Assembly: GCA_000004985.1 (NCBI GenBank)
Contig: GG738882.1
Length of the DNA: 64,000 nt
Origin: Naegleria gruberi
Lineage: Eukaryota
Reading direction: 5' to 3' (one strand)
In this document: one piece after another, positions 16,551 to 41,089 of the stretch
Layout of the letters: each line of letters starts with the position of its first letter
Numbering within the stretch: position 1 is the first letter of the stretch
The notes under the pieces: model-generated
Told to the model about the DNA's origin: nothing
The model's input: the letters and a program-made list of their open reading frames with translations, nothing else
Database searches by the model: none
Made by a program: the position numbers and the translations under genes

Positions 16551-16623
16551 GGGGTCATGGCGCAGTCGGTAGCGCGTAGGTCTCATAATCCTAAGGTCGT
16601 GAGTTCGATCCTCACTGACCCCA
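16551..16623 (+). tRNA. tRNA-Met (anticodon CAT), elongator type
   Basis: Cloverleaf GGGGTCA/TGACCCC acceptor, D-arm GCGC-AGTCGGTA-GCGC, anticodon loop CTCATAA, T-arm GTGAG-TTCGATC-CTCAC (T54, elongator type). Followed by a TTTTT Pol III terminator at 16625-16629. Confidence 0.85.
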
Positions 16624-21715: not shown

Positions 21716-23588
21716 TTACAATAATAATTGTTGAAGTGTTGCTTTTCCAGCACCGCTTTCACAAAACTTTTCAAAAGATAACTCTTTCAATTGAGCTAAA
21801 GTATCATTTAAAGCCAAATCAAACATGTCAGATGCTGGTGTTAATAAATGATATTTGACATGACTCTTTGAATCATAGGGTATATTAACATTCTTTCCAG
21901 ATGTATCTGATAAATATTTTTCGTAAATATTCTTTGCTTCCTCTTCCATGCTACTCACAACACCTTCAATATGTGAATATTTGTTTTTGTAATCTTCTGC
22001 CTCCTTGTAGAACATGCACAAATCTTGTGTATCATTCCTTGCACAATATTCCACAAATATTTTAAATGTTGATTCATTTTTCAGTAATTGAACTAGACTA
22101 AACTTGTCACTTGCTTTTTGTAAAACTCCAAGTTCTTCTTCTAATAATTTGATATGTTCATGTTGTTTTTCAGTTTGTTGGAATAAACGTTCATTTTCCT
22201 GCTCTAAAACATTGACTTTTTGTTGAAGAACTATAAACTTTTTTTCCAAAACTCCATATTCATTATCAATCACTCCTTTCATTGATTTTAAAAATCCAGT
22301 CAATCTCTGATCTAATTTTTCTCTATTGGTGTGAATGGATTTTTCAATATCGTGATCCAATGAATAGGATGAAATACTTGGATTACTTCCTCTGCTCCTT
22401 ACTGAAAATTCATCTCTTGATTCAGAATTTTGAGAGATTGGACTAGTATCTGATGAATTTTCTGATAAATCACTACCAATACTACTTGCACTAGTACTTT
22501 TCATTATATTATCTTCATAGGAAGGTCTAAATACAGCAACAAATGCCAAATTATCATTGGATCCTTCATCTGATGGAATCTCTCCCAACGATAATTCAAT
22601 TGGAAAATTATGACCTTGTTTATGTTTAGCCAACATTCTTCTAGGTTTACCAATTAATCTCTTATCATTATTCTTTTTAAATCTTTCTAAATAACCATCA
22701 TGAAATCTGGCATACATTGACGGCATTAAAATTGAAACATTTTTAGATAAAATTTCATCTCTTCTCCATCCAAATAATTCCTCAGCTGATTTGTTAAATC
22801 CAACAATGACACCCTTCTCATCTGAAATAACAGTTGGATCCAAAACTGCCTCTAAAACATGCAGCATTGATTCCATTCTTGATTGTTTAATTGGAATTGA
22901 TTGTTCTAATGAAGAATCCAATCCAAAACCACTTCCACTTCCACTACTACCCAATACACTATGTCCAATTGCATTACCACCACTCGTTGCTCCACCAATC
23001 ATTCCACTCAATGAAGAATTTGAACCTGAATTGGTTATATGATGATTCGAATCATTTAAAATACTCTGACTTGGTGAGATACGTAATGCTTTTGGAAGTG
23101 ATAAATTTAAAGCATTCATCCATTGAGAATGTAATTGTTGATCTTCTGCTAGTAAAATTAGAGTTTCACTTCCTTCTTGAAATAGAGCTATGGAAAAATC
23201 TTTTCCACAGACGTGTTTTCCATTGTGTAATACTCTTGCTGGTTGCTGTTGTTGATGATTACTGGATAGAGAAGATGATGAAGATGAATTATTCGAAATT
23301 TCACCTAAACTACTCGAAGATGAATTAAATGATGATGAAAATTTATGTGAATTTCTTCTTCCGCATAAATCAAACTCTTCCATAGGTTGAACACTTTCTT
23401 TAGTTTTGAATTTGTATAGAATTCCATCTGAAAGCACAAACCAAAATCTGTTTCGTATACAATGTTCGAATCGATTATTAATATAGAGTATTATATAATA
23501 CAAACTTTTTCCAACGACCAAAAAAGCCTGCTTTCTGCTGTAAATATCCCGAAAGAGAGGGAAAAGAAGATTCACTCGACAATGTCAT
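21716..23588 (-). CDS. PH - PAS - coiled-coil - RGS domain signalling protein. 2 exons; start corrected to ATG at 23588.
   Basis: Exon 1 gives MTLSSESSFPSLSGYLQQKAGFFGRWKK. A GTTTGT..AACAG intron of about 57 nt joins it to FWFVLSDGILYKFK, the canonical PH beta-strands. PAS: ISDEKGVIVGFNKSAEELFGWRRDEI. RGS: FSLVQLLKNESTFKIFVEYCARNDTQDLCMFYKEAEDY..AKNIYEKYL..SFEKFCES. Confidence 0.7.
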
Positions 23589-24418: not shown

Positions 24419-25593
24419 ATGAAAATTCCAAAATCATCTTCGCAAAATCACCATGCTGAATTAACTCATCCATACACTAAATCAGTCCGATTAAACAAGG
24501 GCATTGTTAATGACATGACTACGTTTAAACAAACAAGAAAAAGGCTGAACGAACTTCAACTCAAGATCAATGAAAAGCATAGAAAAATACGACACGGAGA
24601 AGAAGAGTTGGAAATTAATGAAGAATTGAGACAATTGTATGCAGAGTTTTTCGAAAATTCTAAAAGAGAACAAGAGTAAGTATTTGCAATCTTTGCAATT
24701 TACTAATAATTGAAACTAGTTTGATCATTGCAATTTTAGCTAATCTTTCTCAGCTTGTAGAAAAAGCCGAAGAAAGACAAAAAGAGGAAACTAATAGTTT
24801 GGCACAACAACAACAGCTACAAACAGAAACACAAGTACAAACAACACCACCAACAGTACCTTCATCAGAAACAAGTGTACCAGCAAGTGTTGTAAGTTCA
24901 CCAAGCAGCTCTTCAAGCGTTCCTGTAAAAGATCCAATGCAAGTAGATGAAGATGAAGAAACGATCAACTCACAAGCAAGTAGCTCTAATGCACAAAATA
25001 CATCAGATTCTGAAAAACAAACAACAAAAGCAAGAACAGCTGCTGGTTCAAAAGGTGGAAGAAACAAAAAAGGAGGAAAATCAGTCAAAGAACCAGCAAG
25101 TTCTTCGGAACGTAAAGTTGAAGCATCTCAACCAATTACATCAGACAAATATCTTCAACTCGAGGAAGGTATTCCAGTTAAATCTAAAGTTGCTGCTAGA
25201 ATTAGTGGTGCAACTGAAGAAAGTGGAGATTCCGGATTCTGGATTTTGGCTTCTATATTGAAATACTATCCAGATAAGAATAGATATGATGTTATTGATG
25301 AAGATAATAGTGATGATGAAGAATCAACATCAACTGATAGAAAAACATACAAACTTAATAAGAATCACATTGTACAGTTACCAACAGATATGTCACAACA
25401 CAAACTTTTCAAAAAGGGAGATAAGGTGTTTGCTGTTTTTCCAGATACTACAACATTTTATCCTGCTATTGTAGACTCAGTACCAACAAAAACATCTAAG
25501 AATTATAGTTTGAAATTTGAAGATGATGAAGAAGATGGAAAGACACCACTCAGAAAAGTCAACTTTAAATATGTAATGTCAGTGCCCAAATAA
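24419..25593 (+). CDS. SGF29: SAGA-associated factor 29 homologue (N-terminal coiled coil, C-terminal tandem Tudor). 2 exons, intron 24680-24723.
   Basis: C-terminus GFWILASILKYYPDKNRYDVID..GDKVFAVFPDTTTFYPAIVDSVP..NYSLKFEDDEEDGKTPLRKVNFKYVMSV. Human SGF29 has WILAEVVSY..YEVDDIDEE..ALYPQTTCFYRALIH..DYSVLFEDTSYADGYSPPLNVAQRYVV. Intron is GTAAGT..AACTAG. Confidence 0.75.
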
Positions 25594-25753
25594 TTTATTT
25601 CAACACCTAAGTCAATTCTCTAGTCAAAATAAAACCATCATAAGATTGAAAGTTACTGTAAACTAGATGAAATCCAAAGCAATAATTTTTCACTTTTCAA
25701 TCGTTCAAGACACTTGACAGGAGACAATTATTTGCCTCTCACCAAACAAAAAA

Positions 25754-26662
25754 ATGCCAAGCATCTTGTACGTAACAAATCATCATTTATTATTGAAGAG
25801 TTGAATTGATTACTGACTGATCATTCATAACGGAATATATAGTAGTGCTTTTGATAGGAACAAAACTTTTAAACCTGTAAAAAATGTTCAATCATCTCAT
25901 CATCAAGAACTTCATAAAAAATTGGAAGCAACTTTAAACAAGGACAGTTATACTGATATGTTAATACAAGAAAGTGTAAAATTACCACCAACTGGTATGT
26001 TTTTTATATTGTTATATTATTATTCAAAGAAGATTTATCCGACAATTTATTAATTATCGTGTCGATGATAACACTATATTACAATGTATATATAATTGAT
26101 CAATTATTCTTCTTCTTCAACTTTGATGATAACAGAAACTGTTAATGAGTGGATTTCATTTCACATGATTGAATTTGTAAGTTTTCACAATGAATGAAAT
26201 TCTCTCATTCTCCAAAATTAGTATAACAAAATTAATGGAATTTTTGGACAAATGCAAGAATGTTGTACTGATGAAAGTTGTCCTAAAATGATGTCTAGTC
26301 CTGGATATATGTATTTATGGAGAGATTCAAGCTCTAAAAAGTATAAGAAAGCAACAGAAGTGTCAGCACCTGAATATATTGCATTATCAATTGACAAGAT
26401 TGAATCACTTCTCAATGACACATCAATCTTTTCAACAAGTGGAGATTTTCCAAAAGAATTTCGTAAAACAGTTAAAGACATGTGTAAGAAAATATTTCGT
26501 GTCTATGCTCACGTCTTTCATCATCATTACAATGAAGTGACAGATAGAAAAATGGAACCAAACTTTTTGTTTGCATTTAAACATTTTCTATTCTTTGCTA
26601 TGGAATTTAGATTGCTTAATGAAAAGGAATTAGAACCAATGATTCCTTGGATTGAAAAGTAA
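25754..26662 (+). CDS. MOB1: MOB kinase activator (Mob1/phocein family), about 4 exons. Possibly continuous with the next gene.
   Basis: QECCTDESCPKMMSSPGYMYLWRD..SAPEYI..FPKEFRKTVKDMCKKIFRVYAHVFHHHY..FKHFLFFAMEFRLL. Human MOB1 has CNEESCPVMSAGPKYEYHWAD..SAPKYI..FPKNF..ILKRLFRVYAHIYHQHF..FKHFIFFVQEFNLI. N-terminal exons KTFKPVKN.. (MOB1 KTFKPKKN). Exon boundaries are approximate. Confidence 0.7.
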
Positions 26663-26734
26663 GTTTATTCCCTACTTCAATTGAACTGATCGAACATTAA
26701 TTGAAATTTGTGAAATTCTATTCTTTTATTTTAG

Positions 26735-28730
26735 GTCAACTGGTATTGATGTTGAAAAGTATTTGAAAAGTAAAAAGAAGGAAAAGCATAACCAAAAGAA
26801 ATCTGGAGAATCTTCATCAAATCCAAGTACAAGTTCCAATTCTAATAATAATAGCGCCAATGATTTATCTGCAAGCTCAGAAGATAAACAACCTAAAAAG
26901 AGAAATGGACACAAACGTAATGATTCATTGAGGGCAGAAGATTTCAATTTAATTCGAAGACGTTCAGCTTCAGTGATGGCACCAAATGACCAGATCCAGT
27001 CACATAACAGTAACTTGGGTCCAAACATGTTAAACACTTCATTAGATTCGAATAGTTCAGCCACTGATAGTGAAAAGGCAATTTATGCTATTGAACCAAA
27101 TAAGATTTCAACACTTCTTGTGGAGGTGATCGAAGCATGTAATTTGGATGCAAAGAATACCAATGATACTTCAGATGGTTTTGTTGTACTCAAATTTGAA
27201 GGACAAGAAGTTAAAACTGAAGTTATTTGGAAGGAATTGAATCCAAAATGGAATGAACGTTTCACATTCATTGTGAAGAATATTTCCTCCAATTTACAAT
27301 TAACAGTTTATGATGAAAATAGACTTTCAAAGGCAGAATTGATTGGTGTTGTTGATTTCAATTGTCAAGAATTGGCAGATGAAGTTAAACATGATATTTG
27401 GCTTGATTTGAAGAATAAGGATTCCAACACATTTGCTGGACGTATTCATCTCAAATGTATTTTTACCAGTTCTGAAAGTGGTAGTATGGGCTACTTGAAG
27501 AAGATTACAAATTTGAATTTTTATGATACTTTGAAAGAGTTTTTGGTTAATACTTCACCTTCTGTTTTTATTGGATTATTTGACAATAACAAGTTAAATG
27601 TAGATGATAAGATTTTCAAATCACTCATTTATTTAACAACTTATGGAGATAATAAGAATACGATATCTGACGCATTTAATGTTTCAGTGATGAAATATAT
27701 CATTCGTTTAGAAGTGGAAAAGACCATTAGAATATCTCAATTATTGAGATCTAACACCATTAGTACCAAACTAGTTGGAATGTATCTGAAGATTTTTGGA
27801 CAGGGATATCTTAAAAAGACTCTTCAAGAACTCACTCAAAAGATTTGTGAAGAAGATAGATTTTTGGAATGCTCCCCTGATACTATCAGAAAGGAAGATA
27901 GTTCAGTCGATCCAGATGCAAAGGCAAAAGAAAATTTGAATGAAATTATTGCCTATGCAAGACAGTACATGCAATTAATCAAGAATTCAGTTTCAAATAT
28001 GCCACCAGATATTAGACAAATAACTTCTCATTTGAGAGAACAAGTAATGAAAAAGTATGAAAATGTTGTTGCTGTTAGCGAGAGTACTGAAACAAATCAA
28101 TTGGATAGTGCTAGTATGGGTACTATTGCAGCAACTTCACTATTATTCCTTCGATTTATTACACCTTGTATCACTGCTCCTCATTTGTTCCAACTTGTAC
28201 AAACAATTCCTCAGAAGAATGCTCAACGTACTTTAATGTTGGTTTCTAAAATTTTACAACAACTTGCCAATGAAACAGAATTCAGTGAAAAGAAGGAAGC
28301 TTTTATGGTTCCTGCCAATGAATTCTTGAGAGAACAAAAATCAATTTTGAGAAGTTTCCTTGATGATGTTTGCGATGTTAATAAGAGTGGTTTCACACTT
28401 CGTAAGAGTACTGACGGAACTGAAAGTGAGGAAAATAATGATAGATTATTGTGGTCTCTCTACAATATTCATGTACTTTTCTATGATAATGATTCTATTT
28501 TATTCCCATTATTACAAGAATCTAAAAAGAAAGGAACCACAGCACCATTCTCCTACTTTGATCTCAATAATGAGAGTGCAGAAGAACTGGCTGATAAATA
28601 TGATCAACTGAGAAAAGTTATTGCTCGTTTAGGATCACCACCTCAGCTTTCTCTAGCAACCAGACAAAAGATTGCTACTGCCTTCTCCAAGCGAAGTGAT
28701 ACTGATATACCAGCAATCAACCTGAATTAA
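26735..28730 (+). CDS. C2 domain + RasGAP domain protein. The 5' exon boundary is an acceptor at 26734 with no own in-frame ATG before 26970.
   Basis: C2: LLVEVIEACNLDAKNTNDTSDGFVVLKFEGQEVKTEVIWKELNPKWNERFTF. RasGAP signature ..LLFLRFITPCITAPHLF (FLR..CPAI..P). Confidence 0.65.
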
Positions 28731-28761
28731 TAAACTTGTATAATACTAAAATGTAATTGAT

Positions 28762-29283
28762 TCACTCGTATGAAGAATAGGATTGAAAATAATCCTTAAC
28801 TGAATATTCCTTCTTTTTGATTAGTCCATCGTTGGCAATTCGCTGCTCTTTTTGAGCATTTCTCTTCTCTGCTAAAGGTTTAGTAATTTCATCTCTATTA
28901 TGGTGATCATAAACTCGTTTCGAGGTCTTTGATGATTCTTCAGGCAAATTCTCTCCAGTAATAATGTTTACTCTTGTTTGGAATTTTGTTTGTTCTAAAA
29001 AGTTTTTTCTCAATTCTCTTCTATTCTCCCTTCTTTGCTCCAACATTTGTTCATTCTCCTTTCTCTCTTTATCCTGTTGAATAATTGTTTGTTGTTTCCT
29101 TCTGAACCCAGAGCCAAACTTGCTAGCATTCAAATCCGACTTGCCCAACTCTGGACCAACCGGATTCATATTAGCCTCAAGAAAATGATCACCCATATCC
29201 GATGATTTGGCTTCTTGAACAATCTTTTTCCTATCCATCCTGTAGATATCAGAGGATTGAGACATCATTCGTTGTTTGTTCAT
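28762..29283 (-). CDS. Hypothetical 173-aa basic, charged protein (possibly HABP4/SERBP1-like or similar RNA-associated)
   Basis: Single ORF that is Lys/Arg/Glu-rich and low-complexity. No firm motif. Confidence 0.4.
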   Translation of the reverse strand: MNKQRMMSQSSDIYRMDRKKIVQEAKSSDMGDHFLEANMNPVGPELGKSDLNASKFGSGFRRKQQTIIQQDKERKENEQMLEQRRENRRELRKNFLEQTKFQTRVNIITGENLPEESSKTSKRVYDHHNRDEITKPLAEKRNAQKEQRIANDGLIKKKEYSVKDYFQSYSSYE

Positions 29284-29537
29284 TCCTATTATTTAAGGGA
29301 GTAAGTTGATGGATGGGTTATTTTTTTCAACTGAATTGTTTTTAAATTTGTTTTGCCGTAATTTTTTTGGCGCCACTTTCAAAGCCACTCTGCAATAATA
29401 CATTGACCATTAACTTTTGTAAATTGTTTAACAATTTAATAGAAATTTTTAAAGAGATTCACACACGGATCACTTCATTCAAAGCCAAATAGAACTCCAT
29501 CTCTTCGAACGTCACTTGCCTTTCGTAAATATGATGA

Positions 29538-37779: not shown

Positions 37780-37852
37780 TGCCGACACCAGGGATCGAAC
37801 CAGGGACCTTAAGATCTTCAGTCTTACGCTCTCCCAACTGAGCTATGTCGGC
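37780..37852 (-). tRNA. tRNA-Phe (anticodon GAA)
   Basis: Reverse complement is GCCGACATAGCTCAGTTGGGAGAGCGTAAGACTGAAGATCTTAAGGTCCCTGGTTCGATCCCTGGTGTCGGCA, near-identical to the eukaryotic consensus tRNA-Phe. T-stem has one U-U mismatch (51-63). Downstream T-run on the minus strand. Confidence 0.8.
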
Positions 37853-40614: not shown

Positions 40615-41015
40615 TTTATTGAGCTAATAAATCTTTGAGATGAATATCAAATTCAATTAATAACAGAGTGGGATAGCTCCAAATCTGACGGACAGTGCAA
40701 TGTCTTATTGAAGCCAGCCAAAGTGTGCAATTAAGCACTACTCTGAACCCAACAAAAAATTGAGATAATAGTATTGCACCCCGTAGGATGCTTTCAGCTA
40801 TTACACTGAAAAGAACTGATACTACACTCGATCAAAGCCAATTGGCGAGAAAGATACTATGAAGAATTGAGAAAAGCACAGAGTATAAATAGTGCTGTTG
40901 TTATAAAGATAGGAATGTAGGTTCTTGTGGTATTGTTTTATTTTGATGAGTTTACCAATTGCTTGAACATGCAGCAAGAGGACAAAAATTCTGTTAAAAA
41001 AGCTAAAAAATTAGA

Positions 41016-41089
41016 TACCGACAATGGGGCTCGAACCCACGACCCCAGGATTAGAAGTCCTGTGCTCTATCCAACTGAGCTATGACGGC
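41016..41089 (-). tRNA. tRNA-Arg (anticodon TCT). Acceptor stem has a G1-U72 wobble and a U5-U68 mismatch.
   Basis: Reverse complement is GCCGTCATAGCTCAGTTGGATAGAGCACAGGACTTCTAATCCTGGGGTCGTGGGTTCGAGCCCCATTGTCGGTA. D-, anticodon- (CAGGA/CTTCTAA/TCCTG) and T-arms are canonical. Confidence 0.65.

Follow-up and report, generated by a model that had tools for sequence, protein, structure and literature searches.

A predicted MOB1-C2-RasGAP fusion gene in Naegleria gruberi and its fused relatives

The stretch of DNA analysed here, the window, comprises 64,000 nucleotides (nt) of contig GG738882.1 of Naegleria gruberi (GenBank assembly GCA_000004985.1) and is AT-rich eukaryotic DNA (~32% GC). On its plus strand, positions 25754-28730 hold a MOB1-type coding region that appears to end at a TAA and, directly behind it, an open reading frame (ORF) with a C2 and a RasGAP domain. 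We conclude, with a probability of roughly 0.87, that the two are parts of a single five-exon gene. Its predicted 879-amino-acid (aa) product would run from MOB1 through a linker and a C2 domain to RasGAP, tying a RasGAP to MOB/NDR-type signalling. An in-frame splice from MOB1 into C2-RasGAP had been proposed in a first-pass annotation of the sequence, and cross-species evidence supports it in the form of fused orthologues, junctions that have no intron, and introns that restore the reading frame.

The gene model and its domains

The gene model was built by reading positions 25000-29500 and locating the splice signals. Translation starts with the ATG at 25754-25756, and the N-terminus of the product (MPSIFSAFDRNKTFKP) is the same in the Naegleria fowleri model. 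Once spliced, the ORF has 879 codons. The parts of the gene are the following.

25754..25767, plus strand: exon 1, MPSI and the first two bases of an F codon, followed by a GTACGT donor at 25768
25843..25994, plus strand: exon 2, MOB N-terminal regulatory region with the equivalents of human MOB1 T12 (KTFKP) and T35 (EATL), from the gene model and an alignment to human MOB1A
26136..26176, plus strand: exon 3, ETVNEWISFHMIEF, the acidic kinase-binding helix with the equivalents of E51, E55 and W56
26222..26658, plus strand: exon 4, MOB core with the zinc ligands (C..C, H..H) and the basic phosphopeptide pocket (KKIFR), ending ..PWIE and the AA of a Lys codon
Between exons 1 and 4, plus strand: introns 1-3, of 75, 141 and 45 nt
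26659..26734, plus strand: junction intron, 76 nt, phase 2, GTAAGT...TTTTAG, 25% GC
26735..28730, plus strand: exon 5, linker, C2, RasGAP and C-terminal tail
26735..27110, plus strand: linker at the start of exon 5, with the junction peptide, a low-complexity Ser/Asn/Lys stretch and a conserved block
26955..26966, plus strand: RRRS, a basophilic Ser motif that every lineage keeps in its linker; candidate AGC/NDR-type phosphosite by its sequence
27111..27410, plus strand: C2 domain, Pfam C2 at residues 341-440, E = 6e-22, 78 bits
27690..28271, plus strand: RasGAP catalytic domain, Pfam RasGAP (PF00616) at residues 534-727, E = 5e-28, 99 bits against a cut-off of 28.3
28629..28685, plus strand: C-terminal motif LGSPPQLSLATRQKIATAF, conserved in all four lineages, with no Pfam match
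28728..28730, plus strand: stop codon TAA of the fusion ORF, adjoined by a second TAA

A ciliate-type genetic code, in which TAA would be read as Gln, was considered and ruled out: exon 5 runs for 2 kb without an in-frame TAA or TAG and ends TAA TAA.

Besides the C2 and RasGAP domains, Pfam recognizes Mob1_phocein at residues 43-209 of the spliced protein (PF03637, E = 3e-52, 177 bits against a cut-off of 27). On sequence similarity this domain is of the MOB1 class. Human MOB1A is the best solved relative (9e-47), and the matches to yeast Mob2 (1e-34) and phocein (3e-11) are weaker. The Cys2His2 zinc site is kept (CCTDESC and AHVFHHH), and the phosphopeptide pocket formed by human K153, R154 and R157 is retained as K/K/R in KKIFR. 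The equivalents of E51, E55 and W56 in the acidic helix (ETVNEW) are conserved, as are those of T12 and T35. The roles given here to the zinc, pocket, acidic and Thr residues are those of the established structural literature on MOB1.

In being full-length and 40-44% identical to human MOB1A/B, the domain resembles MOB1 (Mats/Mob1p), the co-activator of NDR/LATS/Dbf2 kinases in the Hippo pathway, the mitotic exit network (MEN) and the septation initiation network (SIN). Canonical MOBs are free-standing proteins of ~210-240 aa, whereas the N. gruberi domain forms the N-terminal part of a protein of 879 aa with several domains, and its C-terminal helix continues into the linker, C2 and RasGAP.

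The linker is a basic, Ser-rich segment of ~120 aa, most of which cannot be aligned between lineages. It contains two conserved islands, the junction peptide STGIDVEKYLKSKKK at 26736-26780 and the RRxS motif, the aligned forms of which are IRRRSASV, IRRRSSSV, MRRQSRIS, ARRQSRAG, RSKSRAV, RRGSRIT and RRGSRIV. AGC kinases of the NDR/LATS type prefer basophilic RxxS sites, a preference that the linker RRxS fits.

When the C2 domain is compared with the C2A domain of synaptotagmin-7, the five Ca2+-ligand positions are N, D, D, N and E in N. gruberi (2/5 Asp) and D, D, D, N and E/Q in N. fowleri and Willaertia. In the RasGAP domain the arginine finger lies in LLRSNTISTK (Arg codon 27747-27749) and the FLR motif is FLRFITPCITAP (28146-28181). 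These two segments, together with SKILQQLAN, align to FRGNSLASK, FLRFINPAIVSP and SKILQSIAN of neurofibromin, and the arginine finger, the FLR motif and the lysine of SKILQxLAN show no variation among the homologues. The closest relatives of solved structure are the GAP-related domain (GRD) of neurofibromin, SynGAP and p120GAP (E = 4e-19 to 4e-16).

The order of these two domains is familiar. SynGAP/DAB2IP, RASAL/CAPRI (RASA4) and p120RasGAP (RASA1) also place a C2 domain directly upstream of RasGAP, and xLRSNx, FLRFxxPAxxxP and the catalytic-site Lys are likewise present. The targeting module of the N. gruberi protein is a MOB domain, whereas in those proteins it is a PH domain, an SH2-SH3-SH2 unit or tandem C2 domains; Pfam finds no PH or BTK domain in the N. 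gruberi fusion (compare P0103 and P0137). The C2 domain also differs from those of the known C2-RasGAP proteins in having lost most of the canonical Ca2+ ligands. Behind RasGAP, the consensus of the C-terminal motif is LG[SPA]PPQ[LV]S..R.[RK][VI]..[AS]F.

The junction between the MOB and RasGAP halves

The terminal MOB codons ATT GAA AAG TAA (26651-26662) can equally be read as GAA AA followed by a GTAAGT donor, as the first-pass annotation had pointed out, and the TTTTAG acceptor that it placed at 26729-26734 is present in the sequence. The GTAAGT...TTTTAG intron is thus there; its length, first given as 72 nt, is 76 nt, which falls between the shortest and the longest of the gene's three other introns. 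After the splice the downstream exon does continue in the same frame (..PWIEK followed by STGIDVEKYLKSKKKEKHNQ..), yielding one 879-codon ORF. The apparent MOB stop, TAA at 26660-26662, is made of bases 2-4 of the donor, and it is there because a phase-2 intron starts GTAAGT, as would happen with any such intron. We regard 26659-26734 as an ordinary spliceosomal intron, whose splicing in vivo we infer from the sequence.

The intron interrupts the same codon in the same phase in N. fowleri and L003, a Naegleria-like contig from a metagenome. Its length is 76 nt in N. gruberi, 134 nt in N. fowleri and 42 nt in L003 (1, 2 and 0 mod 3), and the three intron sequences are unrelated except for their splice sites. 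Each of the three splices restores the frame into S/A-T-G-I-D-V-E-x-Y/F-L-K-S-K-K-K. Over the junction peptide there are 4-5 synonymous differences versus one nonsynonymous difference.

Outside Naegleria the intron is precisely absent, in Willaertia, four metagenome contigs (L008, L010, L011 and L013) and the protein P0234. The Willaertia junction, ..QDWIEKAIGIDLEKYLKSKK.., is one ORF. The MOB C-terminus of this species runs on as ..MQDWIEKAIGIDLEKYLKSKKSKHSKK.. with neither a stop nor an intron, which we consider the decisive observation.

The first-pass annotation had also allowed for two genes. In that case MOB1 would stop at TAA 26660-26662, a C2-RasGAP mRNA would be translated from Met-26976, and positions 26685-26975 would be a leader that is open by chance. 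Two points speak for such an arrangement. The MOB sequence ending in ..IEK stops no more than 6 residues from the end of human MOB1A, and prokaryote-style gene callers split the locus on metagenome contigs: P0003 begins with the equivalent Met, and the TAA closes P0006 and P0008. Against it, the supposed genes are only 76 nt apart, a gap into which a terminator, a promoter and the second gene's 5' end would all have to fit; the reading frame is regained with every one of the three intron lengths; and in the six intron-less sequences the junction is a single ORF.

The leader itself also argues against two genes. The RasGAP ORF had been described as free of ATG for about 230 nt, with its first Met at about 26970. 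The stretch is indeed ATG-free; the first ATG lies at 26976-26978, 241 nt after the acceptor. From 26685 to this ATG the downstream frame is open for 97 codons, which has a chance of ~5e-4 given the window composition and of ~1e-4 when the leader was shuffled 20,000 times; over the same stretch the two remaining frames hold 4 and 17 stops. The last 24 codons of the stretch (26907-26978, ending at Met-26976) encode GHKRNDSLRAEDFNLIRRRSASVM, a block whose protein sequence is identical in N. gruberi, N. fowleri and L003. Codon differences in this block are 8 and 11 synonymous (against N. fowleri and L003) versus 0 nonsynonymous. Met-26976 itself is not conserved, being Leu in Willaertia and having no aligned counterpart in the other lineages outside Naegleria. 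On this comparison of sequences the leader is under purifying selection at the protein level and is therefore coding. The synonymous-only changes and the absence of the Met outside Naegleria contradict a MOB1 that ends at the TAA and a RasGAP that begins at the Met.

Fused relatives, gene order and other features of the window

The first-pass annotation had suggested that related genomes be searched for MOB-RasGAP fusions, and such fusions are found in N. fowleri, in Willaertia magna and on environmental contigs. A homologue search with the spliced protein returned FDP41_003704 of N. fowleri (880 aa, 71% identity) and ABK040_007183 of W. magna (859 aa, 55% identity), both at 100% coverage and both with Mob1, C2 and RasGAP as precomputed domains, under the database label 'hypothetical protein'. 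The same kind of search recovered P0234, a full-length protein of 827 aa that is 71% identical to the L011 protein and has an uninterrupted junction.

P0002, P0001 and exon 5 of the window were aligned, and with this alignment 1.84 billion representative proteins were searched exhaustively by HMMER. Pfam scans of the matches added two Mob1-C2-RasGAP representatives that are less than 50% identical, P0085 (753 aa) and P0087 (797 aa). A sample of the other high-scoring matches with several matching stretches, scanned in the same way, consisted of multi-C2 proteins, none of them a fusion. In the L008/L009, L010 and L011 contigs the junction lies within single uninterrupted ORFs. The gene call P0086 begins at the Met of ..EPMKNWLQTQMGLDIEKVLKQKKK.., and the same frame further upstream in L011 encodes the C-terminal helices of a MOB. 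A scan of metagenome loci combined with an HMM scan of six-frame ORFs identified L013, a contig of 2715 nt on which one 839-codon ORF holds both halves.

The fusion proteins thus number nine sequences in four deep lineages, which are 33-40% identical to one another. All nine share the MOB-C2-RasGAP architecture, and the junction intron occurs in the three Naegleria sequences only. The named members are all heteroloboseans. The architecture is ancient within the clade that includes Naegleria and Willaertia (Heterolobosea) and, judged from sequence databases, looks rare and lineage-restricted. Among seven MOBs with extensions that were scanned, six had no second Pfam domain and one had an F-box. 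That MOB fused to a RasGAP module is unusual, as the first-pass annotation had put it, agrees with the apparent rarity in the Pfam scans and with the finding of no paper that describes it.

The F-box protein, P0206 (371 aa, a match in the representative library), is another non-canonical MOB architecture, with F-box and MOB domains, and may be a gene-model artefact. Two further observations concern the fused sequences. In N. fowleri assembly GCA_008403515.1 the MOB exon 4 is split over two frames (L001 4786-5290), and in the other assembly (L006 4974-5477) it is one ORF (P0007). As a result of this frameshift, FDP41_003704 lacks the zinc-binding Cys segment and reads ..IFVLATCICGETQVPKKYKK.. 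instead of ..IFGQMQECCTDESCPKMMSSPGYMYLWRDPSSKKYKK... L008 and L009 carry an identical fusion ORF of 797 aa, and from nt 112 of L009 onward they match at 100% identity. Nucleotides 1-111 of L009 and ~3082-3192 of L008 differ completely, which could stem from chimeric assembly, from allelic or structural variation, or from a 5' exon further upstream.

The gene order SGF29-tudor (plus strand), MOB, C2-RasGAP is common to N. gruberi, N. fowleri, W. magna and L003, and a PAS-RGS gene on the minus strand lies further upstream in both the N. gruberi window and L003; we count this conserved order in favour of the fusion. In the window this is an ORF of 619 codons with PAS and RGS domains (21716-23575, minus strand); in L003 the PAS and RGS pair upstream of SGF29 has been split in two by the gene caller. 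Directly downstream of the fusion gene, the ORF at 28765-29283 (minus strand) matches NAEGRDRAFT_50704 (XP_002674757) of N. gruberi letter for letter.

Elsewhere the window contains a full-length U2 snRNA gene (40669-40857, minus strand, 103 bits), located ~160 nt from a tRNA-Arg(TCT) gene (41016-41089, minus strand), as well as genes for tRNA-Phe(GAA) (37780-37852, minus strand) and tRNA-Met(CAT) (16551-16623, plus strand). A run of N at 2408-2863, an assembly gap, produces spurious 'ORFs' in four frames and makes the first 4 kb look poorer in GC.

Alternative readings and the proposed signalling role

Several points weigh against a single fusion gene or against parts of its proposed function. 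In the protein collection we found neither a fused, nor a MOB-only, nor a RasGAP-only N. gruberi model for 25754-28730, although the neighbour NAEGRDRAFT_50704 is present, and exact look-ups there of the MOB-only protein, the RasGAP protein from its Met and the fused protein gave no match; the reference annotation of N. gruberi may be without the fusion gene. When metagenome and metatranscriptome contigs were scanned with a degenerate DNA pattern covering the junction in its spliced or intron-less form, there were 0 matches. The fused models of N. fowleri and W. magna come from automated gene prediction, which the intron-less ORFs do not need. As to function, Ca2+-dependent membrane binding by the C2 domain is doubtful with 2-3 of the 5 canonical Asp kept, the coupling to NDR/LATS kinases is argued from residue conservation, and a basic, Ser-rich linker can contain RRxS by chance. 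An additional MOB-only product by intron retention is possible in Naegleria.

For the fusion protein we propose the following mode of action. The RasGAP domain, with its arginine finger and FLR motif intact, would switch off a Ras-family GTPase, and the C2 domain would place it at membranes. The fused MOB would dock a kinase of the NDR/LATS/Dbf2 type, a phosphorylated Ste20-like upstream kinase, or both, and the linker RRxS would be the likeliest site at which a docked AGC kinase could regulate the GAP. Taken one step further, the protein might be a self-contained node. MOB would dock and activate an NDR/LATS/Dbf2-type kinase at the membrane, the kinase would phosphorylate the RRxS of the protein's own linker and RasGAP would thereby be switched on or off, with intron retention in Naegleria also freeing MOB1. 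We offer this node tentatively, as a possibility well short of even odds.

A different role for the MOB domain would be that of a recognition module for phospho-Thr/Ser, not of a kinase co-activator, recruiting RasGAP to phosphorylated partners much as the SH2 domains of p120RasGAP do. The basic pocket kept as K/K/R would serve such a role, MOB1 is an established phospho-recognition module (PMC5461540), and p120GAP, SynGAP and RASAL likewise have a targeting domain N-terminal to their C2-RasGAP part. The equivalents of E51, E55 and W56 and of T12 and T35 are also conserved, however, which argues for full MOB1 function. By analogy with the SH2 case this role is conceivable, and we hold it as tentatively as the node. 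The phospho-recognition and co-activator roles are not mutually exclusive.

Less likely is a dual output in Naegleria, where splicing would give the fusion, and a free MOB1 of 215 aa (..WIEK-stop) would arise whenever the 76-nt intron was retained in a regulated manner. In protists alternative splicing commonly takes the form of intron retention, and we count this in favour of a dual output. Retention would stop translation one codon past the splice site, at the natural C-terminus of a MOB, and none of the three Naegleria sequences has lost the intron at this domain boundary. An immediate TAA is automatic with a phase-2 GTAAGT intron, however, and needs no selective explanation; the intron sequences share only splice sites, and the six intron-less relatives can make the fusion only.

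Two separate genes are highly improbable, since selection on the leader, the non-conserved Met and the intron-less relatives leave this arrangement very little room.

The single fusion gene is without a counterpart in the literature that we consulted. Reviews present MOBs as small, free-standing adaptors of NDR/LATS kinases and as the oldest part of the Hippo/MEN/SIN module (PMC7761452, PMC7035326); N. gruberi is mentioned in the reviews only as having Mats/MOB1, and a preprint on the Stentor kinome treats Mob1 only as a free regulator. Literature and full-text searches returned no paper on a MOB-RasGAP architecture or on FDP41_003704, and ABK040_007183 of W. magna was likewise absent. Each of the domains is well known, and fused models of N. 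fowleri and W. magna are already in databases; what is new is the conserved combination of the domains, an architecture and not a kind of system.

The closest functional parallel comes from fungi, where Orb6-Mob2, a MOB-bound NDR kinase, phosphorylates the Cdc42 guanine nucleotide exchange factor (GEF) Gef1 at a basophilic site and so controls its availability (PMC4591695). The parallel is by analogy only: in the fungal system MOB, kinase and GTPase regulator are three distinct proteins, with a Cdc42 GEF as the target, whereas here MOB and RasGAP would be in one polypeptide.

For annotation, the consequence is that ORF-based callers split this gene; the N. fowleri model is in addition damaged by the frameshift. 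If the node proposed above is real, the activity of the NDR pathway (cell-cycle exit, polarity or the amoeba-to-flagellate transition) would be hard-wired to Ras inactivation. Independently of the node, the fusion is a natural "Rosetta-stone" case, and it predicts a direct link between MOB/NDR and Ras-family GTPases in early-diverging eukaryotes, including the human pathogen N. fowleri.

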